A DNA stretch of 20,000 nt from an uncultured virus (IMG/VR IMGVR_UViG_2687453124_000003) (IMGVR_UViG_2687453124_000003); one strand, 5' to 3'. Shown: positions 7,629 to 19,330, counted from the first letter of the stretch. Notes: generated by a model from the sequence alone, not told the origin. Translations and numbers: made by a program.

Positions 7629-8518
7629 CAGTCCGATTCCCCGGAGCACGGCACCAACCCAATCTCGCCGATCACATCGTCGAAGGTTCCAAGCAAATCG
7701 CCTGCAATCTCGTTCGATATCTCTATAACCGAGAACGCATCGATTGCACCAACATCTTTAGCGGTGGCCAGACGCTACACCGCCTGATCAGCTGAAACCA
7801 CACTCTGCGGCCAAACGCAGCGCCTCACCTCCCCGAATTTAGCTGGGCAATGTCGCTGACCAGTGATACCGTCAGCTCGTGACTTTGATACGCCTCGACC
7901 AGCGAGTTGCCGGGATGCAGACAGCATCACCGGCGGCTTTGTCGTGGCTGGAATCGGTCATCAAGACCCAAGAGCTCTCCACGGCCACGAGCCACGATTT
8001 CGGCCAGCCCAGACGCTTCCGGTCACCCCGATATGACCTATCCGCCCTCCCCGTGGGCGAGCGCCCCGATCGGAAGCAAGGGCCAGGGAACAAATCTCAT
8101 AAAAATCTCAATATTTGCGTTTCTGCTGATAGGGATGTCCGCTGACACTCCCTTAGTTCATCACGCTTTGAATTACCTTGCCGCACAGCCGATTTAGATA
8201 AATTGTGCTTTACAAGACTCGTATTCCGTAGCACCATCATGTTCAGCACGAACGAGAAGATCGCTCGATTCGCTGCCGCACGCGGGACGCTAAGGCGTTC
8301 TCCTGCCAGGACTTTGAAAACTCCAGAGTGTGTGATGCACCGCCCCTCACGAGGGTCGATGAACAAGCCGTCTCGGCGCCCGGGGCTCCCAAGAGAGTCA
8401 ATGACCGGTCAGCCAGTCGAGCATGCTCATCCTCAATCCTCCTGTCGGGGCGGTCCGCCGGGCGCCGCCATGCGCCCGGCCCTCATGCCAGCTTTCCGTT
8501 AGGAAGCAGGTATGAGTT

Positions 8519-8560
8519 CCGTTTGGTTGGATTGGTGTCAAATCCATTGCAACCAAACGG
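8519..8560. repeat. 11-bp inverted repeat immediately before the first tRNA
   Basis: CCGTTTGGTTG (8519-8529) / CAACCAAACGG (8550-8560). Confidence 0.7.
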
Positions 8561-8564
8561 ATAT

Positions 8565-8638
8565 GCGCCTCTAGCTCATCTGGCCAGAGCACCTGACTCT
8601 TAATCAGGGGGTACGGGGTTCGAGACCCCGGGGGCGTA
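8565..8638 (+). tRNA. tRNA-Lys(CTT)
   Basis: Cloverleaf; anticodon arm CCTGA-CTCTTAA-TCAGG. Confidence 0.93.
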
Positions 8639-8640
8639 CG

Positions 8641-9124
8641 TAGCGTGACGTGCGGTGGAGTAGACCGCACACGTACCAGCGGGTGGTGCCGGGTACTGGG
8701 TACGCGGCCAAGGTGCCGCAACCGACCACCAATCGGCTCCTACCCACTCGCAGATTCTTCCGGTGTCAGAACCGGTTGGGGTGTGGGGACGGCACCCATA
8801 GGCGCGAGGTATACCGCCAACCGTCCACGGCTCGATTGCTCCGATCCCACTCCTCCTTCGCAAGGCGGAGCGGCGCGGCATCTCACCGCGAAACGACAAC
8901 CCGTTCACCCAGTAGGGGCACCTAACGGTGAGCGGCACGGTGCAGGGTAAGACACCTTCGAGTGGGTCGAATCAGAGAGGGACACCGGCACACCGGTGTG
9001 GCGCCGTGGACAGACACGGGGGCGATAATGCAGCCCTTGACGGAGCAGGAGCCGCCTCGTTCTGGCGGCAGGCTAGAAATCCGAACACCGAGTGGTCCCG
9101 TCGGGCGCAACAATCCGGGACACT
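8641..9124 (+). ncRNA. Unidentified large, highly structured ncRNA candidate (~480 nt)
   Basis: No convincing ORF; more than 10 hairpins plus nested long-range stems; exactly bounded by tRNA-Lys and tRNA-Gly. Confidence 0.6.
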
Positions 9125-9196
9125 GCGAGCGTGGTCCAATGGCTACGACCTCAGACTTCCAATCTGATGATGCGGGTTCGATTCCCGTCGCTCGCT
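9125..9196 (+). tRNA. tRNA-Gly(TCC)
   Basis: TCAGA-CTTCCAA-TCTGA; U73. Confidence 0.93.
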
Positions 9197-9198
9197 CT

Positions 9199-9300
9199 TG
9201 GTGCCCACGACGGTGGGTAGGGACAGAGGACGGTCCCTTCGCCACGGGGTTCGATTCCCCGCGTTGGCTTCGGCCCGCGGTGCGGAACTGGTGATGCCAG
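9199..9300 (+). ncRNA. Circularly permuted tRNA-like element (YrlA-like topology), candidate
   Basis: T arm CGGGG-TTCGATT-CCCCG, then a 7-position acceptor-like stem closed by UUCG, then a D-loop-like GCGGAACTGGTGA. Confidence 0.45.
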
Positions 9301-9349
9301 CTGGTCGGTGCCAGGTACCGGATCACTGCCGACCTTCTCCAAACATCTC

Positions 9350-9434
9350 GGCCCTGTGGCGAAACATGGCAGCCGCGCCGGATTCAAACTCCGGTGTCCG
9401 ACAGGACGTGTGGGTTCGATTCCCTCCAGGGCTA
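9350..9434 (+). tRNA. tRNA-Leu(CAA)
   Basis: CCGGA-TTCAAAC-TCCGG; long variable arm; A73. Confidence 0.92.
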
Positions 9435-9452
9435 CCGCGTCCGAATGAACAA

Positions 9453-9524
9453 TGCCTTGTGGGGTAATCGGCAGCCCACTGGATTTTGGCTCCGGGAGTT
9501 CAGGTTCGAGCCCTGGCGAGGCAG
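9453..9524 (+). tRNA. tRNA-Gln(TTG)
   Basis: CTGGA-TTTTGGC-TCCGG; U1-A72, G73. Confidence 0.92.
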
Positions 9525-9550
9525 CAGGTCGGCGGACCCGAAACGCACAT

Positions 9551-9622
9551 TGCCCGGTGGTCTAACGGCAGGACTCCTGATTCTGGATCAGGTCGGTGGA
9601 GGTTCGAATCCTCCCTGGGCAG
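9551..9622 (+). tRNA. tRNA-Gln(CTG)
   Basis: CCTGA-TTCTGGA-TCAGG; U1-A72, G73. Confidence 0.92.
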
Positions 9623-9735
9623 CATCGCGAATTCCACTGTGCGGAGTTAATCGCCCGCGTGGCAGTGGTCTTCGCAGGTGGCGTTCCAGGAGCATGTTCG
9701 ACGCTATGGCCCCATTCCAGGATCGCCGCCACAAC

Positions 9736-9812
9736 GCCCTGATAGCTCAGTCCGGCCAGAGCGGCTGCCTTGTAAGCAGTGTCCGTCGCCGGTTCGAATC
9801 CGGCTTGGGGCT
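9736..9812 (+). tRNA. tRNA-Thr(TGT)
   Basis: GCTGC-CTTGTAA-GCAGT. Confidence 0.9.
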
Positions 9813-9832
9813 CTCCTGCGCCTTCGGGTGTT

Positions 9833-9907
9833 GCCGCCATAGCTCAGTGGCAGAGCGCTTTCTTGGTGAGAAAGAGGTCTCGGGTTCAACCCCCGATGGT
9901 GGCTCCA
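9833..9907 (+). tRNA. tRNA-Thr(GGT)
   Basis: CTTTC-TTGGTGA-GAAAG; encoded CCA. Confidence 0.9.
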
Positions 9908-10047
9908 CGGTTGTCGGTGACCAGCCCGCTGCGCGAGCGGCACGCGGAACCGTCAGACTCGGCACTCCTCTGCCCACGCAGGGGTCATTGGCTGGCTAAG
10001 CCGCACCGAGCAAGTCAGCTGCAGCTGGCCGAAAGGCGTGGGTGTCT

Positions 10048-10123
10048 GTGGATGTAGCGCAGCTGGTAGCGCGTCTCGTTGCCAACGAGAAGGCCGCGGG
10101 TTCGAATCCCGTCTTCCACTCCA
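10048..10123 (+). tRNA. tRNA-Gly(GCC)
   Basis: TCTCG-TTGCCAA-CGAGA; encoded CCA. Confidence 0.93.
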
Positions 10124-10257
10124 GCACTTCTCCCCTTCGCGGGAGGTGTGGGGGCTGGTTCCGGCCCCGGCGTCAACGGAGGGTTCGCGTGGACCCTGTA
10201 CCGCCCGATTGAGGTTGGCGGACGCAGAGCGCAGGTAACCCCTGTGGCAGGACACAT

Positions 10258-10331
10258 GCCCCTCTGGCCCAACTGGCAGAGGCGTCGGCTTCAGGTGCCG
10301 AAGGTTCCCGGTTCGAATCCGGGGAGGGGTA
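10258..10331 (+). tRNA. tRNA-Leu(CAG) lacking the long variable arm
   Basis: TCGGC-TTCAGGT-GCCGA; Leu-type D arm and A73, but only a 5-nt variable loop. Confidence 0.85.
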
Positions 10332-10334
10332 CAA

Positions 10335-11109
10335 CGAGGCATGGCTCGATAACCGGAGGTGACTCCGGGAAAGGTGGGTGTGACACCCCGCCGCCACATC
10401 TCTACGGGGATGTGGCACACCATGCACGGCTCCCGCAAGGAGTACCTGGGCAACCGGGTGCCACAGCGGTCCGAGTTCGGCGACAGAAGGGACGGCGAGT
10501 GCTCACCTTCGCGCCGGCGCCACGCAGCGCCGGCACCGCCACGTGAACGAGGACTGCCAGCGGGGTGCGGGGGAACACCAGTCCGAGCTCGCCAGGCGAG
10601 GGCGGTTCCCATGACCTCGGAATCCGGTGGGCGCATCGGTGCACGACGAAGAGCGCAGCGGCTTGGCGGCCAAGCGCGAGGGTGTGAAGCATTCTGTGGC
10701 TCAAAAGGTTACGGAACTTCGCGGGAAAGCACATCCTCAGTCACAAACACTAGCTCAATTGGCAGAGCAATCGTTTCTGGAACGGTAGGTCGCCGGTTCA
10801 AGTCCGGCGTGTTTATCCAAGCGAAAGACTTTCCCTGCCACGGCTCGAAAGCGCCGTAATCCTCGGCCCTGCACAGGGAATCGAGGCAACCGTGAACTCG
10901 CAAGGTGATCGGATGTCCGTGAGGCAGTAGAGCAATACAGGGGTTAGCTCCCCCTGTGCGAATCGAAACCTGCGGAGTAGATCGTGGCATGACGAGTGGC
11001 TGCCGCAAGCAGCCCGGCGTGACGGTTACCAGGGGAACCTGGATGGATAAGTCGGGAAACCATAATCCGATGAGAGACCGTTGCTTTGGGGCCTAATCTC
11101 AGCCCCAAA
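10335..11109 (+). ncRNA. GOLLD-like large ncRNA
   Basis: ~775 nt structured non-coding stretch with GNRA hairpins, a GGCTCAAAAGG motif and 3' hairpin TTTGGGGC-CTAATCTCA-GCCCCAAA whose loop can pair with upstream TGAGA. These resemble GOLLD features as recalled; the 5' boundary is approximate. Confidence 0.75.
10744..10819 (+). tRNA. tRNA with CTG anticodon (Gln-like) embedded in the GOLLD-like RNA
   Basis: ATCGT-TTCTGGA-ACGGT; C1:A72 mismatch, U73, encoded CCA. Confidence 0.8.
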
Positions 11110-11116
11110 TAACCAA

Positions 11117-11191
11117 TAGCTCGTAGCTCAATTGTGGCAGAGCGCGCGACTGTTAATCGCGTAGTTGGAGGTTCGACTCCTCCCGGGCTAG
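11117..11191 (+). tRNA. tRNA-Asn(GTT)
   Basis: CGCGA-CTGTTAA-TCGCG. Confidence 0.93.
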
Positions 11192-11203
11192 CGCTTCATA
11201 TTT

Positions 11204-11274
11204 GGGGCTGTAGTTCAACGGTAGAACAGGGCTTTTGCACGGCTCTGATCGGGGTTCGATTCCTCGTAGCTCCA
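11204..11274 (+). tRNA. tRNA-Ala(TGC)
   Basis: GGGCT-TTTGCAC-GGCTC; G3:U70 pair. Confidence 0.92.
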
Positions 11275-11338
11275 CGGGCGCATCCGCGCCATTCCGGCCC
11301 GCCCACAACACGGAAAGACATCTCGTGAAGTTAAGAAG

Positions 11339-12574
11339 TCAAGCGGCGAGCACGGAAGGAGGTGGGAAGGCGTGGGTTTCGTTGTAGCTGGTACTGGTTT
11401 GCAGGCAGTGGTGCAGTTGTCCGAGGAATTTGTTGAACAGGTGTCGTTGGGCTTGCCGGTTCCAGTCTCCGCGTTCTCTCCGAGTCTGAAAATGGTGTTT
11501 GGCGCCGGGCGATGCCTTCAACGAAGCCAGGGCCCAGATGGAACCGGCGGCGGCGAGGCGGTTGTTCTTGATGCGCCGGTAGGTGATGACAGTTTTCTTG
11601 CCACTGGAGCGGGTGACCGGTGCGGACCCGGCGAAGGCTTTGAGACCTCGTGCGTCGGCGAATCGGGTGCGGTCGTCGCCGATCTCGGCGAGCACCCGGG
11701 CGCCGATGAGGGTGCCCATGCCAGGGAAGCTGCCGATCACCTTGGCGTCGGGGTGTCGTTCAAAATGGTCGCGAGCCGCTGCTTCCAGGTCGTCGGAGGT
11801 GCGGCATGCGGCATCGAATTGGACCAGCAGCGCGGTCAACCCGATGCCCATCGCATCCTCCACGACACCTGGTTGACGCAGGTGCTCACGGCGGAAGATG
11901 GCGTGCAGGCGGTCGGCTTCCTCGTCGATGCCGCGTTTGCGTCCGGCCTTGGTCAGCAGCGCCCGCAGTTTCGCGCGGGTGAGCTTTGCGGCCTTGGCTG
12001 GTGTGGATGCGGCAGCCAGGATGGTTCGTGCCTCGGGTCTGGCCAGACCGCCGTTGGGCATCCCAGCGAAGGCGTCCAGCGCCGCCGGGTAGAACTCTTT
12101 GAGCAGGGAGCGGAGCTGGTTGCCGAGCTTCTGCCGTGCCCACACGGCGTCTTGTTGAGCGCGGGCCAGGACGCGAACTGCCTGGGCCAGTTCGGTATCG
12201 GCGGGCAGCGGCCGGTGAGCGGCGGCGTCGGTGCGCAAGATGTTGGCCAGCAGCACCGCGTCAGTGGCATCAGCTTTGGCGCCCGACACTTGATGGCGTG
12301 CCCGGTATCGCGAGGCTGCCAACGGATTCAATGGATAGACAGCGCGTCCGGTAGCGCGCAAGCCAGCGACCAGCAGACCGCGGTCGGTTTCGAGTGCGAC
12401 GGGAATCGGGTCATCGGCGCTGTCCCCGGCTTCGGCCAGCATGTCGAGCAGCTCAGTGAAACCTGTTGCGTCGGCGTTGATCTTCGCCCGGCTGATCGCC
12501 GTCCCGGCCTGGTCGATGATTGCGACGTCGTGTCGGGATTCGCCCCAGTCGATGCCACAGTACAAGCTCGTCAT
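11339..12574 (-). CDS. IS110-family DEDD recombinase/transposase
   Basis: GIDWG, ALE and KADATDA (DEDD RuvC-like) motifs; C-terminal Tnp domain AGSAPVTRSSGK. ATG 12574 with GAGGAGG RBS. Confidence 0.96.
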   Translation of the reverse strand: MTSLYCGIDWGESRHDVAIIDQAGTAISRAKINADATGFTELLDMLAEAGDSADDPIPVALETDRGLLVAGLRATGRAVYPLNPLAASRYRARHQVSGAKADATDAVLLANILRTDAAAHRPLPADTELAQAVRVLARAQQDAVWARQKLGNQLRSLLKEFYPAALDAFAGMPNGGLARPEARTILAAASTPAKAAKLTRAKLRALLTKAGRKRGIDEEADRLHAIFRREHLRQPGVVEDAMGIGLTALLVQFDAACRTSDDLEAAARDHFERHPDAKVIGSFPGMGTLIGARVLAEIGDDRTRFADARGLKAFAGSAPVTRSSGKKTVITYRRIKNNRLAAAGSIWALASLKASPGAKHHFQTRRERGDWNRQAQRHLFNKFLGQLHHCLQTSTSYNETHAFPPPSVLAA

Positions 12575-12609
12575 GATCCTCCTCGTGTGTCGCGGTGGTT
12601 CGTCTCGAA

Positions 12610-13000
12610 CCCGAAAGGGGTTACCCGGCGCCCTAATCGCAGAACTCGTCCGTTCGTCATCTCGTTGGCCATCTCGCAACCCCAGCGCACCGCAGGATCT
12701 CGTTCTGTCGAAGAGTTCAAGACTCCGGAAGAAACGGGGAGCTCACTCCTGTGGCGGGCTCGGACAACGACATTGCAGCACCAACACCGGCATGGACCCC
12801 GCTGGGCGCGCCGCTCTTTCCGGAGAAGTCAAGACATCAGGAGGCGCACAGGCGTCACCCAGCGGAGACCACCACTACCGCCGAGCTGCGCCGCTCTTGC
12901 AGGAGGCGTCCACGCATCGCCCGGAGGTTGACAGGCGTCAGTTGCCGGTAGCTACGTCAGAACACAGACCAGGGGGTGGCAGTCCCACCATCCGCGAACC
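12610..13000 (-). ncRNA. IS110 bridge RNA with two target-binding-loop units and one donor-binding loop
   Basis: Guide segments match both insertion flanks (12839-12847, 12816-12822) and both IS ends (12658-12665, 12633-12638). Transcript ends are approximate. Confidence 0.8.
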
Positions 13001-13027
13001 AACCACAAGATTAGGAGGCGCGGCGCC

Positions 13028-13495
13028 ATGACGACGATCGTGCCCGCGCCTTCCGTGCGGGTGTTCAACGCCGACTATTCGTTCCTCGACACCGTGCGCT
13101 GGCAAGACGCGGTCGGCATGCTTCTACGTGACGTGGCGTACGCGCTGGAGGCCCACGTGCCCCCGCGCATCGTCCGCTCGCCAAGCGCCGAGGTGGAGGT
13201 GCCCAAGTCGCTTCTGCTGACTCGGTACGCCCCTGTCCCCTACCGGCGTGATCCGGAGTTCGCCTCGCGTGCCGAGATTCTGCGCAGGGACAACTACCTG
13301 TGCCAGTACGTCGGCTGCGGGGCCAAGGCCACCACGATCGATCACGTGTTCCCGCGTTCGCGCGGCGGCGCACCGTCAACGTGGACGAACCAGGTAGGCG
13401 CGTGCGAGCCGTGCAACGGCCGCAAGGCAGACCGTACACCGGAGGAAGCGGGTATGAAGCTGATCCGCGAGCCTTTCCGGCCAGCGCACATCTGA
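13028..13495 (+). CDS. HNH endonuclease
   Basis: RRDNYLCQYVGC...TIDHVFPRSRGG...NQVGACEPCNGRKADRTPEEAGM. Confidence 0.95.
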   Translation: MTTIVPAPSVRVFNADYSFLDTVRWQDAVGMLLRDVAYALEAHVPPRIVRSPSAEVEVPKSLLLTRYAPVPYRRDPEFASRAEILRRDNYLCQYVGCGAKATTIDHVFPRSRGGAPSTWTNQVGACEPCNGRKADRTPEEAGMKLIREPFRPAHI

Positions 13496-13539
13496 CGACG
13501 GGGAACAGACCCGTGACGGTTCGGAGAGACGAGCTTCAT

Positions 13540-13610
13540 GGTCCGTTCGGTTAGTGGCAGGCCCCGGGATTCTCAGTCCCGTTACGCGGGTTCGATTCCC
13601 GCACGGACTA
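13540..13610 (+). tRNA. tRNA-Glu(CTC)
   Basis: CGGGA-TTCTCAG-TCCCG. Confidence 0.9.
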
Positions 13611-13617
13611 CGTTGAG

Positions 13618-13685
13618 TGGCGTTGAAATCGGGTTTGATTCCCGCAGGCCGACAGTGTGCCTGGTTGGTGTGGTGCCGCACGCCA
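13618..13685 (+). ncRNA. Second circularly permuted tRNA-like element, candidate
   Basis: Closing stem TGGCGT/ACGCCA around a T-like arm, an acceptor-like hairpin and a GG-containing D-like arm. Confidence 0.4.
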
Positions 13686-13747
13686 TGTGAGAGCCGTGCG
13701 AATCGGCGAAAACTCTACCGCTGCCGAGGAATCGGCAAGTAGAGCAT

Positions 13748-13820
13748 GGTCCCGAAGCTGAACTGGTTCAAGCGCTCGGTTGAAGCCCAAGAGAGGTCGG
13801 TTCGATTCCGGCCGGGACCA
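13748..13820 (+). tRNA. tRNA-Phe(GAA)
   Basis: CTCGG-TTGAAGC-CCAAG (one C:A mismatch). Confidence 0.85.
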
Positions 13821-13829
13821 CTTTTGTAT

Positions 13830-13917
13830 GTCGGTGTGGCGGAATGGCAGACGCACCAGCTTGAGGAGCTGGCGCCCATCACAGGGTGTGCAGGTTCGAC
13901 TCCTGTCATCGACACCA
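13830..13917 (+). tRNA. tRNA-Leu(GAG)
   Basis: CCAGC-TTGAGGA-GCTGG; long variable arm; CCA. Confidence 0.93.
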
Positions 13918-13918
13918 A

Positions 13919-13991
13919 GCCGCGGTAGCTCAGTGGAGAGAGCACCTGCCTACGAAGCAGGGGGCCGGGGGTTCAAATCCCTCTCGCGGTA
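13919..13991 (+). tRNA. tRNA-Arg(ACG)
   Basis: CCTGC-CTACGAA-GCAGG. Confidence 0.93.
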
Positions 13992-14021
13992 CAACGGTCC
14001 AGAAGACCGAAGATCTCAAAA

Positions 14022-14098
14022 CGACCTGTAGCTCATCTGGTTAGAGCGCCGCCCTGATAAGGCGGAGGCAGTTGGTTCAAATCCATCCAGGTCGACCA
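14022..14098 (+). tRNA. tRNA-Ile(GAT)
   Basis: CCGCC-CTGATAA-GGCGG; CCA. Confidence 0.93.
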
Positions 14099-14118
14099 CG
14101 CGGCAATCCGCCGCGAAT

Positions 14119-14192
14119 GCCGGTGTAGAGCAGCTGGTTAGCTCGCCACCCTGTCAAGGTGGAGGCCGCGGGTTCAAGTCCCGTCACTGGCG
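14119..14192 (+). tRNA. tRNA-Asp(GTC)
   Basis: CCACC-CTGTCAA-GGTGG; G73. Confidence 0.94.
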
Positions 14193-14217
14193 CAAGCGGT
14201 GCATTGGGCACCGTCTC

Positions 14218-14294
14218 AGTCTCGTAGCTCAGTTGGAAGAGCACCTGGTTTACACCCAGGGTTGTCGGGGGTTCGAATCCCTCCGGGACTACCA
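14218..14294 (+). tRNA. tRNA-Val(TAC)
   Basis: CCTGG-TTTACAC-CCAGG; CCA. Confidence 0.93.
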
Positions 14295-14295
14295 T

Positions 14296-14376
14296 GCCGG
14301 CACGGCGCAGAGGCGAGGCGCAGCGGCCTGTAAAGCCGTTCTTTCGGGTGAGTGGGTTCAATTCCTTCTGCCGGCA
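14296..14376 (+). tRNA. tRNA-Tyr(GTA)
   Basis: GCGGC-CTGTAAA-GCCGT; variable arm. Confidence 0.88.
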
Positions 14377-14407
14377 CCGGGCCCGCGGCGGCCTCAACGA
14401 CGCGAAA

Positions 14408-14481
14408 CGGGATGTGGCGCAGCTTGGTAGCGCATCTGCTTTGGGAGCAGAGGGTCGCACGTTCAAATCGTGTCATCCCGA
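14408..14481 (+). tRNA. tRNA-Pro(TGG)
   Basis: TCTGC-TTTGGGA-GCAGA; C1-G72. Confidence 0.94.
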
Positions 14482-14495
14482 CAAACAAGATTTCA

Positions 14496-14568
14496 GCCCG
14501 CGTAGCTCAGTGGATAGAGCGCCTGCCTCCGAAGCAGGAGGCCCCGAGTTCAACTCTCGGCGTGGGTA
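14496..14568 (+). tRNA. tRNA-Arg(CCG)
   Basis: CCTGC-CTCCGAA-GCAGG. Confidence 0.93.
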
Positions 14569-14572
14569 CTTC

Positions 14573-14651
14573 GCCTCCATAGCTCAGTCTGGTCCAGAGC
14601 CACCGACTTTTAATCGGAGGGTCGCAGGTTCAAATCCTGCTGGGGGTACCA
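14573..14651 (+). tRNA. tRNA-Lys(TTT)
   Basis: CCGA-CTTTTAA-TCGG; CCA. Confidence 0.92.
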
Positions 14652-14674
14652 GGCCGCACCGCCGGCCGAATCTT

Positions 14675-14757
14675 GGAAGATGAACGCGCCCGGCGCGCGC
14701 ACGGCTTCGAACACCGTTGGTCGCTTCGGCGATGGGGATCAGGGCCTCCGTCTTCCG
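14675..14757 (+). tRNA. Non-canonical 8/4 tRNA-Ser(CGA) (allo-tRNA-like fold)
   Basis: 8-bp acceptor GGAAGATG/CGTCTTCC, 5-bp D stem, loop TTCGAAC, UUCG variable arm, 4-bp T stem with loop ATCAGGG, G73. Confidence 0.7.
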
Positions 14758-14780
14758 CTTTACGGGTATCTATCCCCTAT

Positions 14781-14853
14781 GCGTCCGTGGTCTAGCGGCT
14801 AAGACGCCGGTCTCCAAAACCGGAAGACGCAGGTTCAAGTCCTGCCGGGCGTG
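14781..14853 (+). tRNA. tRNA-Trp(CCA)
   Basis: CCGGT-CTCCAAA-ACCGG. Confidence 0.93.
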
Positions 14854-14919
14854 CAAGTACCCGACCATCGAACGGTGGTCGGATCCAGAGGTCGCGACGA
14901 CAGTCGCGGTCTCGTCCAT

Positions 14920-14992
14920 GGCGCTGTGCTGTGATGGCTAGGCACCCGGGCTTTCATCTCGGGACGCGCGGGTTCAATTCCCGTCGGCGCTA
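14920..14992 (+). tRNA. tRNA-Glu(TTC)
   Basis: CCGGG-CTTTCAT-CTCGG; atypical D arm. Confidence 0.85.
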
Positions 14993-15054
14993 CTCGATTT
15001 TTCGGCGTGTCGCGACGCCTGGCTGGCCCTTGACGCCGACGTCGAACAAGCTGA

Positions 15055-15165
15055 ATGCGCGAGATCCCGTGTCAACGCCAACCCCCCCGTTATCACCTGG
15101 CGAAGGCATCTCCACGACGCCGCATAGTCTCGGACGAGAGGTGACCTGCACGGGATCTCGCGTAT
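15055..15165 (+). repeat. 17-bp inverted repeat enclosing a structured 77-nt interior
   Basis: ATGCGCGAGATCCCGTG (15055-15071) / CACGGGATCTCGCGTAT (15149-15165), with one G:U pair on the + strand. Confidence 0.75.
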
Positions 15166-15167
15166 AT

Positions 15168-15243
15168 GCCCCTGTAGCTCAGAGGACAGAGCGACGCGGT
15201 CCTAACGCGACGGCCGGCGGTTCGAATCCGTCCGGGGGCACCA
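15168..15243 (+). tRNA. tRNA-Arg(CCT)
   Basis: CGCG-GTCCTAA-CGCG; CCA. Confidence 0.9.
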
Positions 15244-15271
15244 TGGCATCAATCGCAAAGGAGCAGCAACC

Positions 15272-15880
15272 GTGGACAGCTCTCCCCGCCTGTTACCGGC
15301 CGGAATCGGGTCCGTGTTCATCGTCGACGTCGAGGCCACCTCGCGCACACCGTTCAGTGGTGTGATGACGGAGTTCGCCGTGGTCCATCTGGTTTCGGGC
15401 ACTTCGTTCTACGGGCACACCTACCGCAACCATCCACATCCGGACAATCCCGCGATCCCTGTTGCAGATCTCGACGGCGGGGGTGACTACATCAGCGAGG
15501 CGTACTGGATTATGGACGGCAAGGACGTCGCAAACTCGGTGGCAGGTTCGGAACCGGCCGATGTCGCTAGCGCACTGCGCACATGGCTCGACGGATTCGG
15601 TTTACCACGCCGGGTACTGGTCAGCGACAACAACGGCTACGACGCGATGTGGCTGAACTGCTTCACTGACCTCTGGACGGGTGAGGTCTTTTTCGGCCAC
15701 TCGTCGCGGCGCATCGGTGACTTCTACGCAGGCACTCGGCAGAAGTGGGCTGATCACTCCTCATGGAAGAGTCTGCGCCGCACACGACACACCCACCATC
15801 CACTCGACGACGCACGGGGTAACGCTGAGGCTCTGCGCACGCTGCTGGGCATTGATGTCGATCGCAAAGGCGAGGATTAA
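15272..15880 (+). CDS. DEDDh-family 3'-5' exo(ribo)nuclease
   Basis: ExoI VDVEAT, ExoII SDNNGYD, ExoIII HHPLDDA; AAGGAG RBS. Confidence 0.87.
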   Translation: MDSSPRLLPAGIGSVFIVDVEATSRTPFSGVMTEFAVVHLVSGTSFYGHTYRNHPHPDNPAIPVADLDGGGDYISEAYWIMDGKDVANSVAGSEPADVASALRTWLDGFGLPRRVLVSDNNGYDAMWLNCFTDLWTGEVFFGHSSRRIGDFYAGTRQKWADHSSWKSLRRTRHTHHPLDDARGNAEALRTLLGIDVDRKGED

Positions 15881-15882
15881 CC

Positions 15883-16128
15883 ATGCCGACGATGACCCTG
15901 TACACCCTGTGGTGCGAGGGATACGCCGCCACCGGAGAGCATGGACGCGCGCGTTCACTGGGTACCTGGGCCGCGGAGTCATTCGACTCTGCTGTGGAAC
16001 TGTGGAATGCGACCAAGAACCGAAATTCGATGTACGGAAACCTCGTTCACCACGAGAACGGTTCCTGGACCTTGTGGGGCTGCCGGTTATTCGACAACGA
16101 GGCCGATGCCCGCCGAGCGTTCGGATGA
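15883..16128 (+). CDS. Hypothetical protein
   Basis: GAGG RBS; follows the exonuclease by 2 nt; WGCRLFDNEADARRAFG C-terminus. Confidence 0.75.
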   Translation: MPTMTLYTLWCEGYAATGEHGRARSLGTWAAESFDSAVELWNATKNRNSMYGNLVHHENGSWTLWGCRLFDNEADARRAFG

Positions 16129-16252
16129 ACGGCTCCAGCTGACAACTAGCGGTGTCGGCGTGTCGCGCGGTCACAGTGGATTCGAGAGTTCTTGCAGCAG
16201 AGGCTATATGCCAGTGCTCGAACCGCACCAATCGCCGAACCTTGGAGGGCAT

Positions 16253-16456
16253 ATGAAACTCTGCGTCACCGCTGTGATCGCGGCGGCACCCTTGTTGATC
16301 TTCGCTCCATTCGCCAGCGCGGGGCCGCGCTGCCTCCCAGATCAAACAGCCTGCTGCCCCAGCGGCTACATAGTGGCTGAACACCCCAGCGGTGCGATGA
16401 CGTGCTCTCCTGACGTCGATGCCCAGTCCGCCGCCCGAAACAGCATCCCGATCTGA
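16253..16456 (+). CDS. Small secreted Cys-containing protein
   Basis: GGAGG RBS; signal peptide MKLCVTAVIAAAPLLIFAPFASA; 4 Cys in the mature part. Confidence 0.65.
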   Translation: MKLCVTAVIAAAPLLIFAPFASAGPRCLPDQTACCPSGYIVAEHPSGAMTCSPDVDAQSAARNSIPI

Positions 16457-16518
16457 TCGGTAGACAATCCACCCCCGCAGTGTGCGCCCGCTGCGATTCA
16501 GAGGTGTTCAGGCGCAGG

Positions 16519-16593
16519 AGCGGAGTAGGGCAGCTCGGTCAGCCCGCGTGGCTCATAACCACGAAGTCGCAGGTTCGAATCCTGCCTCCGCCA
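16519..16593 (+). tRNA. tRNA-Met(CAT), initiator-like
   Basis: CGTGG-CTCATAA-CCACG; A1:C72 mismatch; purine11-pyrimidine24 D stem. Confidence 0.88.
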
Positions 16594-16896
16594 CGACGTC
16601 CCACATGAGCTGCAACAAGGGATAACAGAGGGCACGACAACACCGATGGCGGTATGAGACATGGCTAATGATCCTGGCCGACGAACTGCGGAAAAACGCT
16701 CGTGGCGTCGTGAGATTGACGTGGAGGCAACAGCCCAGGTCGAGCCGTTCAACCCGTACGCGCACTGCATAAGCCTGGTGGAGTGCCGCACAACCTGCGT
16801 CTATGTGGGCCAAGGGTGTTCAGAGGTGCACAGAAATCACTACCGCGATCTCTCTGCTGATGAAGGGGTACCACCACCCCTAACTCAGCGAGTCAA

Positions 16897-16969
16897 CGCT
16901 CCGTAGCTCAGTTGGTAGAGCTCCGCACTCATAATGCGAAAGTCGCGGGTTCAAGTCCCGCCGGAGCAA
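16897..16969 (+). tRNA. tRNA-Met/Ile2(CAT)
   Basis: CGCA-CTCATAA-TGCG; C1:A72 mismatch. Confidence 0.88.
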
Positions 16970-17051
16970 CGAGTTCTAGCCCCTTGCGGGCCTGAACATT
17001 TGGAGGGTGCTTCCGACGAATGGCGCCGTCGATGTGGCGCTGTTCTGCCCT

Positions 17052-17501
17052 TCAGAACTGAATGTTGGCGCTCATCGAGTATCGATCGAACTGGGAATGT
17101 CCGAGCAGGCCGTCGAGAAGCCGGGCACGCTGCATCTCGGGCTCGCTGACCTTCATCCCGATCACGCCTTTCCCATCTTCGCTTATGGTGTTTCCGCTCG
17201 GCAGAACGCAGCGACCGCCATCGACGCTCAAAACAAGATCACGCTGAATGGGCACACCGTTGTATCGGATGTCGAGCCAGTGGCCGTAAATCTTCTTATC
17301 TGGGAATCCGCCAGATTCGGACCATGCCTCGGTCCAAGGCTCACCATCGAGATGGTCCTTGCCCCAGGCAAGGCTAATTGCGGCGTCCTCGTGAAACACG
17401 TACAGCTGCCGGTGACCATCCTCAGTGGTCACATTCTCGACCTTCGTCCAGTCGTCTGGAGAACTCGCCTCAACCTTTGTGAGGATCGAAAAGTAGTTCA
17501 C
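17052..17501 (-). CDS. Hypothetical protein, antisense to the array
   Basis: 149-aa ORF with globular-protein composition, filling the gap between two tRNAs. Confidence 0.72.
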   Translation of the reverse strand: MNYFSILTKVEASSPDDWTKVENVTTEDGHRQLYVFHEDAAISLAWGKDHLDGEPWTEAWSESGGFPDKKIYGHWLDIRYNGVPIQRDLVLSVDGGRCVLPSGNTISEDGKGVIGMKVSEPEMQRARLLDGLLGHSQFDRYSMSANIQF

Positions 17502-17609
17502 GGCTGAAATCTAACCAAGACCCATCGAATATCACCTGGCTTACGCGAATCTGGCCTATGCACCTTTCTTCATCACATCCTGAACCGCCGGATAGCCTCC
17601 GGCAGAAAT

Positions 17610-17699
17610 GGAAGACCCACCCGAGGGCTGGCGACGGGCGCTGTCTTGAAAACAGTTGGGGCCGAGAGGCCCGTGTCGGTTCGATCCCGACGTCTTCCG
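17610..17699 (+). tRNA. tRNA-Ser(TGA)
   Basis: GCTGT-CTTGAAA-ACAGT; long variable arm; G73. Confidence 0.9.
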
Positions 17700-17833
17700 C
17701 GCAACCCAACCGGCTCACAACTGGAAGGGAACCGCTCGGCTGAGATGCCGGGTGCGGATGGCTCCGCCTGCGTGACTGTGGACAGACGGCGCGCAGATAG
17801 CGGCCCGGGCTGGGCCTGTCCCCGGCTCGACAT

Positions 17834-17909
17834 GGCGTCGTTAGCTCAGCGGTAGAGCCCCGGTTTGTGGAACCGGTAGTCGTCGGTTCGATCCCGACAC
17901 GTCGCCCCA
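17834..17909 (+). tRNA. tRNA-His(GTG)
   Basis: CCGGT-TTGTGGA-ACCGG; G-1/C73; CCA. Confidence 0.93.
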
Positions 17910-17969
17910 TCGGCTGCGGCACCGCGTCGCGTTCGTCCGGACGCGGTGCCGCGGCCCAACATCGTCGAC

Positions 17970-18218
17970 ATGAGTGACACACGCAATGACCCACTCGACC
18001 ATCGTCTTGCTGCTGCCGGAGGGTCCTGGGAGCCGCGCCTCCCCGAGTACCACGGGCCCGACCAGGAATACATCGCTCCGGGGCGACGAGTAGCGCACCT
18101 ACCCGGTTTCAGCTGGCCGAACACCCCAGAGAAGTGCATTGCGGGCCACCTCGACACGGTCTGGGTTCTCGACGGGCAGCTACTCCTCTGCACGGGTTGC
18201 GGGCTGGACGGAACCTGA
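17970..18218 (+). CDS. Hypothetical protein with C-terminal CxxxH...CxxC Zn-ribbon-like motif
   Basis: CIAGH...CTGC; ATG 17970. Confidence 0.6.
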   Translation: MSDTRNDPLDHRLAAAGGSWEPRLPEYHGPDQEYIAPGRRVAHLPGFSWPNTPEKCIAGHLDTVWVLDGQLLLCTGCGLDGT

Positions 18219-18345
18219 CAGGTAAACGTTGTCGACCTCGCGGTAACGACCAGGGTTAGTGCGCTAGGCGAGGATCGGGCGCGAGAGTGACCGGAGTGGC
18301 CCTGGTGACAATCTCCAGCTCAACATGACCGTTCGGCACGCACAG

Positions 18346-18418
18346 GCCTCCGTGGCGCAACGGATAGCGCACCGGCTTTCTACTCCGAGGGTTGCCGGTT
18401 CGAATCCGGTCGGGGGCA
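18346..18418 (+). tRNA. tRNA-Arg(TCT) with weak anticodon stem
   Basis: CCGGC-TTTCTAC-TCCGA (3 pairs); Arg identity A20 in the D loop. Confidence 0.82.
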
Positions 18419-18452
18419 CCGAGTTCGACACCGACAAGCTTCGAAAGATCCA

Positions 18453-18527
18453 CAGGCTGTGGGAAAGTTTGGTCAATCCACCTGGCTGGGGGCCAGGAAA
18501 TCGCGTGTTCGAATCGCGCCAGCCCGA
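18453..18527 (+). tRNA. tRNA-Pro(GGG)
   Basis: CCTGG-CTGGGGG-CCAGG. Confidence 0.88.
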
Positions 18528-18711
18528 CCGCCAGTTCGCACCTCACTGTCCCGTAACGCGATGTACGGCGGTGAGGTCGACGAGAGTGTGATCGATAACC
18601 GCGTTGCAGGCCGCTATCGACCGTACAGAGGAGGTTGGTGTGATTGAACCGTGAGACCTTCTGGCAGAACGTATCTGAACCAGCCAAAAGTCTATTTCCC
18701 AGGAGACAGCC

Positions 18712-18948
18712 TTGTCGAAACACATAACCCCCATGGCGGCCCTCAAGAAACTTGAGCAGCAGAACAACCGACTCAAGTCCTCCTATCACACCGCGAGCGA
18801 GAAGCGTGCGATGAAGGCCGCACGCGAGAAGCGGCAAGCTACGCGAGCCGAAGCTAGTGCGGAAGAGCTTCAGGAGATGTTGGACGCCGATATACGTTGG
18901 CTCGACAGTCTTGGCCCCAGGCTCAGCCAAAAAAGGTCTGACACTTAG
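18712..18948 (+). CDS. Hypothetical basic coiled-coil protein
   Basis: TTG start after AGGAG; helical Lys/Arg/Glu-rich 78 aa. Confidence 0.55.
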   Translation: MSKHITPMAALKKLEQQNNRLKSSYHTASEKRAMKAAREKRQATRAEASAEELQEMLDADIRWLDSLGPRLSQKRSDT

Positions 18949-19015
18949 CCTTCGGCAACACTTCCCAACTTGAACATTGAGCTGGCCCAGCTCCACCCGC
19001 GCTAGCGCGGGTCCT

Positions 19016-19089
19016 GTCTCCGTGGCCGAGTGGTTAAGCAGCGGCCTGCAAAGCCGTCTACGCCGGTTCAAGTCCGGCCGGAGACTCCA
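19016..19089 (+). tRNA. tRNA-Cys(GCA)
   Basis: GCGGC-CTGCAAA-GCCGT; U73; CCA. Confidence 0.93.
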
Positions 19090-19111
19090 CACTGGCCCAC
19101 CGGCCAGCAGC

Positions 19112-19186
19112 GCCCCTTTAGCTCAGATGGCCAGAGCGCCCGCCTCGTAAGCGGGAGGTTCGTGGGTTCGACTCCCGCAGGGGGCT
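19112..19186 (+). tRNA. tRNA-Thr(CGT)
   Basis: CCCGC-CTCGTAA-GCGGG. Confidence 0.93.
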
Positions 19187-19212
19187 CAAACGGACACGCG
19201 CAGTGTCTGATT

Positions 19213-19286
19213 CGGGGTATGGGAAAGCTTGGCAATCCGCCTCGTTCGGGACGAGGAGACCGGCGGTTCAAATCCGTCTACCCCGA
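19213..19286 (+). tRNA. tRNA-Pro(CGG)
   Basis: CCTCG-TTCGGGA-CGAGG. Confidence 0.93.
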
Positions 19287-19330
19287 CGTTGGTTTTGCAC
19301 ACTACCTGGCAGTATCTTTTGAATAGATGA

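Follow-up and report, generated by a model that had tools for sequence, protein, structure and literature searches.

The window, the whole 20,000-nt stretch of DNA analysed here, is a tRNA-array island with 35 tRNA genes detected by ARAGORN and a GOLLD RNA detected with Rfam. The GOLLD RNA is full length (10677-11105, plus strand; 198.5 bits where the gathering score is 150, E 9e-56), has a tRNA-Gln (10744-10819) embedded in it and lies within the 35-tRNA array (8565-19287), in which an HNH endonuclease gene and small ORFs are scattered among the tRNA genes. An IS110-family insertion sequence, which we refer to as W, occupies the minus strand between tRNA-Ala (11204-11275) and the HNH endonuclease gene (13028-13495, plus strand; Pfam HNH_5/HNH; PHROG HNH endonuclease, 1.9e-26). 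Its recombinase (transposase) gene (11339..12574, minus strand) encodes a 411-residue protein, P0001, with the Pfam domains DEDD_Tnp_IS110 (PF01548, 3.3e-34) and Transposase_20 (PF02371, 1.4e-11). P0001 resembles the IS621 transposase only remotely (E 1.2e-4), and in the alignment their GID, E, DxxD and SG motifs lie opposite one another. The protein has the N-terminal DEDD RuvC-like domain and the C-terminal Tnp domain with catalytic Ser of the IS110 group. Antisense within the gene (11648-11730, plus strand) lies a match to the actinobacterial sRNA Ms_AS-4 that is below the Rfam threshold (40.6 bits against a gathering score of 50).

We placed the boundaries of W at 11318..13012 (1695 bp, minus strand) from an empty-site joint and from alignment of its ends with those of homologs. 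The empty site comes from RNA-seq run X9, a strain of the same species label in which the element is absent: 83 reads join 11315 to 13013 and skip 1697 nt. The 2-nt ambiguity at this joint is the CT/AG core, which is present as a single copy in the empty site and on either flank of the inserted element (13014-13013 and 11317-11316, minus strand, read from the sequence and the joint). Both flanks are transcribed in X9 (11100-11320 and 13013-13300, first mate mostly on the minus strand), and position 13132 is the start point of many X9 RNA molecules. On the minus strand the left junction reads GCGCCTC-CT/AATCTTG... and the right junction ...CACGAGATGT/CT-TTCCG, the slash marking the end of the element; there are no terminal inverted repeats, and the ends of W match those of its homologs in alignment (left end AATC..., right end ...GAGATGT). 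Sequence and empty site together define the target as GCGCCTC-CT (left target plus core, 13013..13021, minus strand), which is part of the ribosome-binding site (RBS) of the HNH gene, and CT-TTCCG (core plus right target, 11311..11317, minus strand). In gene orientation the target is thus the RBS itself, CGGAA-AG-GAGGCGC, followed 7 nt later by the ATG. W is oriented away from the gene, which its insertion parts from the upstream half of the RBS (AAGGAGG).

The non-coding left end of W is 438 nt long and contains three guide modules, two tandem paralogs of a target-binding loop (TBL) and a separate donor-binding loop (DBL), rather than the canonical complement of exactly one TBL plus one DBL. 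From 5′ to 3′ the order is a small stem-loop, unit 2, unit 1, a spacer of ~110 nt, the DBL and the recombinase gene. The left-end start (12954..13012, minus strand), with the 5′ stem-loop GGTGG...CCACC at 12989-12975, was delimited from a fold of the whole left end and an 82% alignment with a homologous element, L080. No curated Rfam family matched 12575-13012 in a scan of 10500-14000 at E<=1.

Unit 1 (12794..12870, minus strand) is the target-binding loop used at this site. Its 5′ guide strand (LTG), GCGCCTCCT at 12847-12839, is identical to the minus-strand flank 13021-13013, which comprises left target and core, and its 3′ guide strand (RTG), CGGAAAG at 12822-12816, is complementary to minus-strand CTTTCCG at 11317-11311, which comprises core and right target. 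By position it is also orthologous to the lone TBL of related elements, with the 3′ scaffold 175-176 nt before the RDG of the donor loop. Directly 5′ of it lies unit 2 (12874..12952, minus strand), an extra TBL paralog found at the same position in L080 and two further elements, L081 and L082, with a predicted closing stem at 12952-12946/12880-12874. The two units have the scaffold TGACGCCTGT ... AGCGGCGC in common, seen on the plus strand as the repeats GCGCCGCTCT at 12808 and 12888 and ACAGGCGTCA at 12848 and 12931, and each has its own closing stem (CCGCTGGG/CCCAGCGG and CTACCG/CGGTAG). Their guide letters differ. Unit 2 carries CAACCTCCG (12930-12922) as 5′ guide and CTGCAAG (12902-12896) as 3′ guide, both assigned from the sequence, which predicts the target CAACCTC-CT-TGCAG, an AAGGAGG site on the gene strand.

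The DBL (12617..12683, minus strand), which lies about 130 nt further downstream, was located by its fold and by its covariation with the right end. A stem, GGGGTTGC/GGGTAACCCC, encloses an internal loop with a small hairpin; the LDG, ACGAGATGAC at 12665-12656, repeats the right end ACGAGATG-T-CT, and the RDG, GCGATTAG at 12640-12633, contains a GATTAG that complements CT-AATC where the left end begins. The guides of the loop thus match the right and left ends of the element itself, as in donor loops of the IS110 group. The two variable nucleotides before GAGATG take the states GT, CT, AT and AC among homologs, and LDG and right end agree at them in 31 of 36 unique rows, a level reached by 0 of 5000 permutations. 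The target and donor loops of an ordinary bridge RNA are alike in design, so that one of the units could have been taken for the donor loop; since the DBL lies elsewhere and covaries with the donor, neither unit is. We also rejected unit 2 as a donor or excision loop on direct comparison: its 5′ guide reads CAACCTC against GAGATGT of the left donor, the reverse complement of its 3′ guide reads CT-TGCAG against CT-AATCT, and both donor halves and the hybrid junctions are unmatched. Within the donor loop, two GAGATG-containing 12-mers adjoin at 12651-12674 of the minus strand (CGAGATGGCCAA and CGAGATGACGAA), of which the first has diverged in relatives (for example, GCGACATGGCTA).

Much of this had been anticipated by a sequence-only reading of the window. 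That reading proposed an IS110-type bridge RNA organized around a CT core, and both the TBL and DBL logic and the core were found. The strings and coordinates that it quoted were all correct when re-read in the sequence; the element ends that it implied are those of the X9 joint (11315 to 13013, 83 reads); its assignment of LTG and RTG in unit 1 held at two insertion sites (below); and the address of unit 2 is, as it had predicted, also a GGAGG-type site. Its inventory of loops was right about the two TBL units and lacked the donor loop at 12617-12683.

We surveyed relatives of W by protein-guided scans of genomes (the best 80 of 193 relatives, giving 79 distinct loci), viral contigs (one relative, one locus) and metagenomes (80 loci kept of 263 relatives). 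Left ends could be anchored on the RDG motif in 157 cases, 135 of which had a recognisable left terminus. A single TBL was present in 129 of these 135, with 278-327 nt between terminus and RDG, and two TBL units in the other six anchors, where the distance was 339-372 nt. The latter represent five distinct elements: W, L080 (to which L083 is identical), L081, L082 and L111. The tandem layout is therefore rare, with five elements among about 130 measured left ends. The single-TBL relatives, from Mycobacterium, Rhodococcus, Pseudonocardiales and Streptomyces, share 60-72% amino acid identity with W, together with its TBL scaffold, its DBL (..GAGATG.. and GCGATTAG) and its ends (AATC... and ...GAGATGT). 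Like W, they enter an RBS antisense to the target gene (nnnnnTC-CT-TTCnn), and they differ from it in their one TBL and shorter distance from left end to RDG. We take them to be the RBS-targeting IS900/IS901/IS902 group.

Further collections were examined for the tandem form. A pattern for tandem units, which catches W, L082 and L111 and misses L080 and L081, was absent from all 401 genomes sampled in one actinobacterial family (that of G004). All 153 matching records of a plasmid collection, which include an 'IS110-like element IS117 family transposase', align from query position 180 or later and, judged by this, are presumably single-unit. A clade-specific 18-mer occurred in viral contigs in L080 alone. 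Against phages, W had no megablast match, and distant blastn gave just two uninformative 168-nt hits, one to a transposase of Mycobacterium phage Feyre, the other to IS1601. The closest genome match (L001, 80% amino acid identity) is without its first 40 codons and its left end. One MAG contig holds at least 21 copies of a single-TBL relative (L030-L050 and L076) with the target consensus nnnnnTC-CT-TTCTC, the distal left-target positions being matched loosely; two of these copies (L035 and L042) have a second copy close by, and in another (L032) the right end is followed by the left-end-like CTAATCGG, a possible tandem or nested copy.

We next asked how well the extra units conform to the ordinary target loop. 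A covariance model, R1, was built solely from alignment A2 of 86 unique single-unit TBLs (88 positions, 23 pairs), and the second unit of each tandem element was found by a sub-region search because overlapping matches are suppressed. R1 detected two units in all five tandem elements, with scores for units 1 and 2, respectively, of 51.8 and 21.1 bits in W, 28.1 and 16.8 bits in L080, 55.8 and 33.3 bits in L081, 27.7 and 48.5 bits in L082, and 67.6 and 52.7 bits in L111. The match to unit 2 of W is local (model positions 22-70) and has an E value of 1.4e-5 within the 153 nt searched. The nucleotides expected to pair with the core, AG at the RTG end and C[C/T/G] at the LTG end, are kept in 10 of 10 units. 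The shared scaffold of the two units, one of the claims of the sequence-only reading, is thus far beyond chance, and we conclude that unit 2 is a true paralog of the target-binding loop.

To place the tandem elements among their relatives, we used a quick IQ-TREE phylogeny of 118 distinct recombinases, taken from 148 loci with a usable ORF after duplicates were dropped. In this tree a single clade (SH-aLRT 100) unites W, L080, L081 and L082, and the tandem form is present in four of four of its members; L111 falls outside it, as sister to the single-unit L051 (support 86). The comparison of loop number among homologous left ends that the sequence-only reading had called for thus finds the tandem kept throughout the clade, and in L111 besides. 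The tandem form in L111 probably arose independently of the W clade; the tree requires two changes, and its starred branches by themselves leave one origin possible. The four clade members are roughly equidistant from one another, with pairwise identities of 79-82% (nucleotide) and 81-85% (amino acid) for the recombinase, 60-73% for unit 2 and 58-76% for unit 1.

Folding was assessed sequence by sequence, together with shuffling of helix arms; MAFFT/RNAalifold applied to the five unit-2 sequences misaligned the closing helices. Across the clade each unit folds on its own into one shape, with a closing stem, a short scaffold stem, a large internal loop and an inner hairpin, and the closing stems differ in sequence (GCUACCG/CGGUAGU, GCUAUCGUC/GGCGAUGGC, CCACCGA/UCGGUGG and CCCGAG/CUCGGG). 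We shuffled the 3′ arm of each closing helix 2000 times and counted the shuffles that reached the observed duplex energy. For unit 1 this number was 0 in all five elements; for unit 2 it was 3 in L080, 5 in L081, 5 in L082, 76 in L111 and 133 in W, so that the helix of unit 2 is the weaker one in five of five. These counts indicate that unit 2 is under structural constraint, yet has a consistently weaker helix. Unit 2 of W has the weakest fold and closing helix among the ten units; its minimum free energy structure is another fold (z -0.34), the canonical class being possible with P about 0.07. In L080 it is unit 1 that is altered, its scaffold being remodelled and its 3′ guide sequestered in a hairpin. 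The two units of L111 are identical in scaffold and inner hairpin and differ at 6 of 17 guide positions against 0 of 32 others (Fisher p 8.9e-4), a pattern that, as far as sequence goes, suggests two loops holding different addresses. L111 is a dead copy with the recombinase truncated near residue 362 (the last ~50 codons and the right end are absent) and 4 nt of left flank, so its targets are unreadable.

We then compared the guides of both units with the sites at which the elements reside. For calibration, 133 single-unit loci had an aligned unit and 111 of these had both flanks, giving 103 unique guide/target pairs. Over the 12 non-core positions, cognate pairs in this family match at a mean of 8.55/12 and non-cognate pairs at 6.62/12, the background being high because nearly all targets are RBS-like (nnnnnTC-CT-TTCnn). 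Log-odds scores (LLR) derived from position-wise match frequencies had means of +2.1 bits for cognate and -2.4 bits for non-cognate pairs.

The sites of the W clade divide between the two units. At its site in the window, W is matched by unit 1 at 12/12 positions (LLR +5.79) and by unit 2 at 7/12 (LLR +0.25); among 103 other natural guide pairs or targets, 12/12 is never reached. A second site became apparent from assembly. The 1708-nt unitig that carries the element has about twice the depth of its neighbours in the contigs of two runs that contain the stretch in full (349 against 155-173; 52 against 28-33) and two alternative flanks on each side, which indicates a second copy in the source isolate. 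This site reads ...CCAAGTAC-CGGAA-AG-[IS]-AG-GAGG-GGCACAATGACC... on the plus strand or, in the orientation of the element, GCCCCTC-CT-TTCCG, one mismatch from unit 1 (11/12, LLR +5.02; unit 2, 7/12, LLR +0.25). Given the perfect and one-mismatch fits, both insertions in the source isolate are unit-1 events. The L081 site is also closer to unit 1 (10/12, LLR +0.56, with just 3/5 in the right target) than to unit 2 (4/12, LLR -7.46). The L080 site shows the reverse, with 1/12 for unit 1 (LLR -8.05) and 10/12 for unit 2 (LLR +2.17); its flank TATCAATCAC-CT-TGTGT compares with unit-2 strands TATCAATCTCC (5′) and CTTGTTT (3′), a fit reached by 0 of 103 other targets or guide pairs. At the L082 site unit 2 is preferred (9/12, LLR +3.44, against 8/12, LLR -2.53), a preference that rests on position weighting given the raw counts. 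Three of the five sites (from four elements, one or two per element) thus fit unit 1 and two fit unit 2, and we conclude that, in the clade as a whole, target choice can fall to either loop.

The sequence-only reading had held that the element stores two target specificities and had suggested looking for two site classes in the flanks of its copies and homologs. Across the clade, the L080 and L082 sites fit unit 2 and the other three fit unit 1; in the source isolate both copies (2/2) are at unit-1-type sites. A unit-2 target with up to two mismatches was absent from the 20-kb window, in which five matches, all with three mismatches, compared with 1.85 expected. Viral contigs contain two exact copies of the unit-2 target 17-mer (L163 401-417 and L164 401-417); by sequence both matches apparently lie inside coding sequence (..TCKEVD..), away from an RBS, and are probably unrelated to the element. 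L080 resides in a 39-kb provirus whose completeness its record puts at 97% and which has one copy of the element; there it occupies (L162, G001:C1:8000-27000; IS ~8066-9739) an RBS between the major tail and tail-assembly-chaperone genes. PHROGs assign further genes of this provirus to terminase, portal, scaffold, capsid, tape measure and minor tail proteins. Handshake-guide positions, compared by eye, showed no clear correspondence.

From these results we consider it somewhat more probable than an even bet that the left end of W encodes a three-module bridge RNA with two TBLs and one DBL. Each TBL would act as an internal loop, with a 5′ strand (LTG) that copies left target and core and a 3′ strand (RTG) that complements core and right target, and the DBL would apply the same logic to the element's own right and left ends. 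Unit 1 would have directed both known insertions of W, at the RBS-like sites (GCGCCTC/GCCCCTC)-CT-TTCCG, and unit 2 would be a diverged copy of the unit 1 module with a different address. Either TBL of the transcript could then load a recombinase dimer that synapses with a DBL-loaded dimer, giving two alternative insertion specificities or, as a minimum, a spare loop able to drift towards a new one. In the IS621 structure the recombinase dimer bound to the TBL and the dimer bound to the DBL form separate modules, whose loops apparently come from different RNA molecules (Hiraizumi 2024, PMC11208158), so a second TBL could be accommodated without a new mechanism. Function of both loops within a single element, activity of unit 2 in W and the presence of the modules on one RNA are inferred rather than observed. 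The fuller form of this proposal, a natural multi-guide bridge RNA in which one transcript carries a donor loop and two target loops with independent addresses, we put forward tentatively, at a little under even chances.

The main rival reading, in which target loops duplicate and turn over, is in our view less likely. Each present-day element would then have one active loop, which one depending on the lineage, and the other would be a relic or would be kept for RNA folding or stability; unit 2 of W would be inactive. The loop that fits the target is indeed the one that scores higher with R1 in W (51.8 against 21.1), L081 (55.8 against 33.3) and L082 (48.5 against 27.7), and the one that folds better in W and L081, but in L080 the used loop scores lower (16.8 against 28.1 bits). 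The degenerate scaffold and sequestered 3′ guide of the other L080 loop fit a pair of one active and one decaying unit, and the poor folding of unit 2 in W likewise favours turnover. Decay sits less easily with the persistence of both units in four of four clade members despite ~20% nucleotide divergence of the recombinase gene, with closing helices that have changed in sequence across the clade and still pair, and with unused loops that all keep the core-pairing nucleotides and RBS-like addresses; in L111, moreover, the differences are confined to guide positions. Both copies of W are at unit-1 sites and no single element was seen at both site classes, as turnover would have it. Dual use and turnover differ mainly in whether both loops work simultaneously, and under either of them the tandem target loop is real and a substrate for target switching.

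We regard it as improbable that unit 2 serves another role altogether, such as excision at hybrid LT-RD/LD-RT junctions, a second donor loop, a recombinase-binding decoy or a regulator of recombinase expression. Unit 2 is the module nearest the 5′ end, and a preprint describes a truncated TBL RNA that exists separately and serves a second pathway of transposition (10.1101/2025.10.25.684509), both of which would suit such a role; the match of unit 2 to an intact target in L080 and, less strongly, in L082 argues against it. A chance repeat or an assembly artefact has next to no probability, given an identical IS unitig with zero variant letters in two independent runs and the same layout, matched by R1, in four other elements from other sources.

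The three-module arrangement that we favour shares features with IS621. Both systems have a DEDD/Tnp recombinase, a guide RNA in the left end upstream of the gene, a CT core and an analogous DBL, with the target loop 5′ of the donor loop (PMC11208160, PMC11208158), and in both the LTG is identical to left target and core as read on the top strand, while the RTG is complementary to core plus right target (PMC11208160). W differs from IS621 in having two tandem TBLs instead of one, ~110 nt between TBL and DBL and a much longer RNA region, and the LTG of its clade usually has C or G at the second core position, where IS621 has U. For scale, beside the 438 nt of the non-coding left end of W, Durrant and colleagues are said to have put the IS621 bRNA at ~177 nt in 2024.

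The nearest precedent, on the donor side, is provided by expanded IS110 loci. These have tandem non-coding repeat units by the recombinase gene, and one locus has several predicted donor-binding loops (10.64898/2026.08.14.744561). As in W, more than one guide loop of one kind occurs per locus and adjoining non-coding units duplicate. There, however, the account ties the donor-side loops to partial circles, with repeats that are >=95% identical (10.64898/2026.08.14.744561), whereas in W it is the target loop that is duplicated, the copies have diverged to different addresses and both persist in a compact 1.7-kb element. The truncated TBL RNA of CazIS110-1 resembles W in having a TBL as a module apart from the full bridge RNA; it is a second RNA species from one single loop, as opposed to a second loop with another specificity (10.1101/2025.10.25.684509). 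Variants with extended guides and with unusual structures are described in a preprint survey of 32,190 bRNAs, and tandem target loops are absent from its section 2.4 (10.64898/2026.10.21.760802). A full-text phrase search for two, tandem, second or duplicated target-binding loops returned no paper.

Bridge recombinases are under development as programmable genome-writing tools, and the published natural and engineered bRNAs that we found all have a single target loop. Tolerance of two tandem target loops by a natural scaffold would show the RNA to be more modular than the two-loop model and would offer a ready natural design for multiplexed or fallback targeting. It would also give highly site-specific insertion sequences a route to a new target, in which the guide duplicates, one copy drifts and the element switches. 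If the multi-guide reading is true, a 1.7-kb element could home to two site classes, and IS110 elements could acquire or switch targets by duplication and divergence of the target loop, bypassing a non-functional state. On the model outlined above, it is a possibility that two TBL-loaded dimers synapse and recombine two chromosomal sites. Because the family aims at RBSs, including sites in prophages and in a tRNA-array island, these findings bear on the silencing and rewiring of phage and island genes.

A further feature concerns the right end. A sigma-70 scan of the linear window, which is uninformative for actinobacteria, returned 0 promoter-like sites and missed a TTGACT that we read directly from the sequence at 11337-11342 (minus strand). 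Junction promoters have been described for other circle-forming IS elements. The TTGACT is kept in W, L080, L081, L082 and the 21-copy family, and in a circular RE-LE junction it would stand 18 nt before TCTAAT, so that the pair may form a candidate junction promoter.
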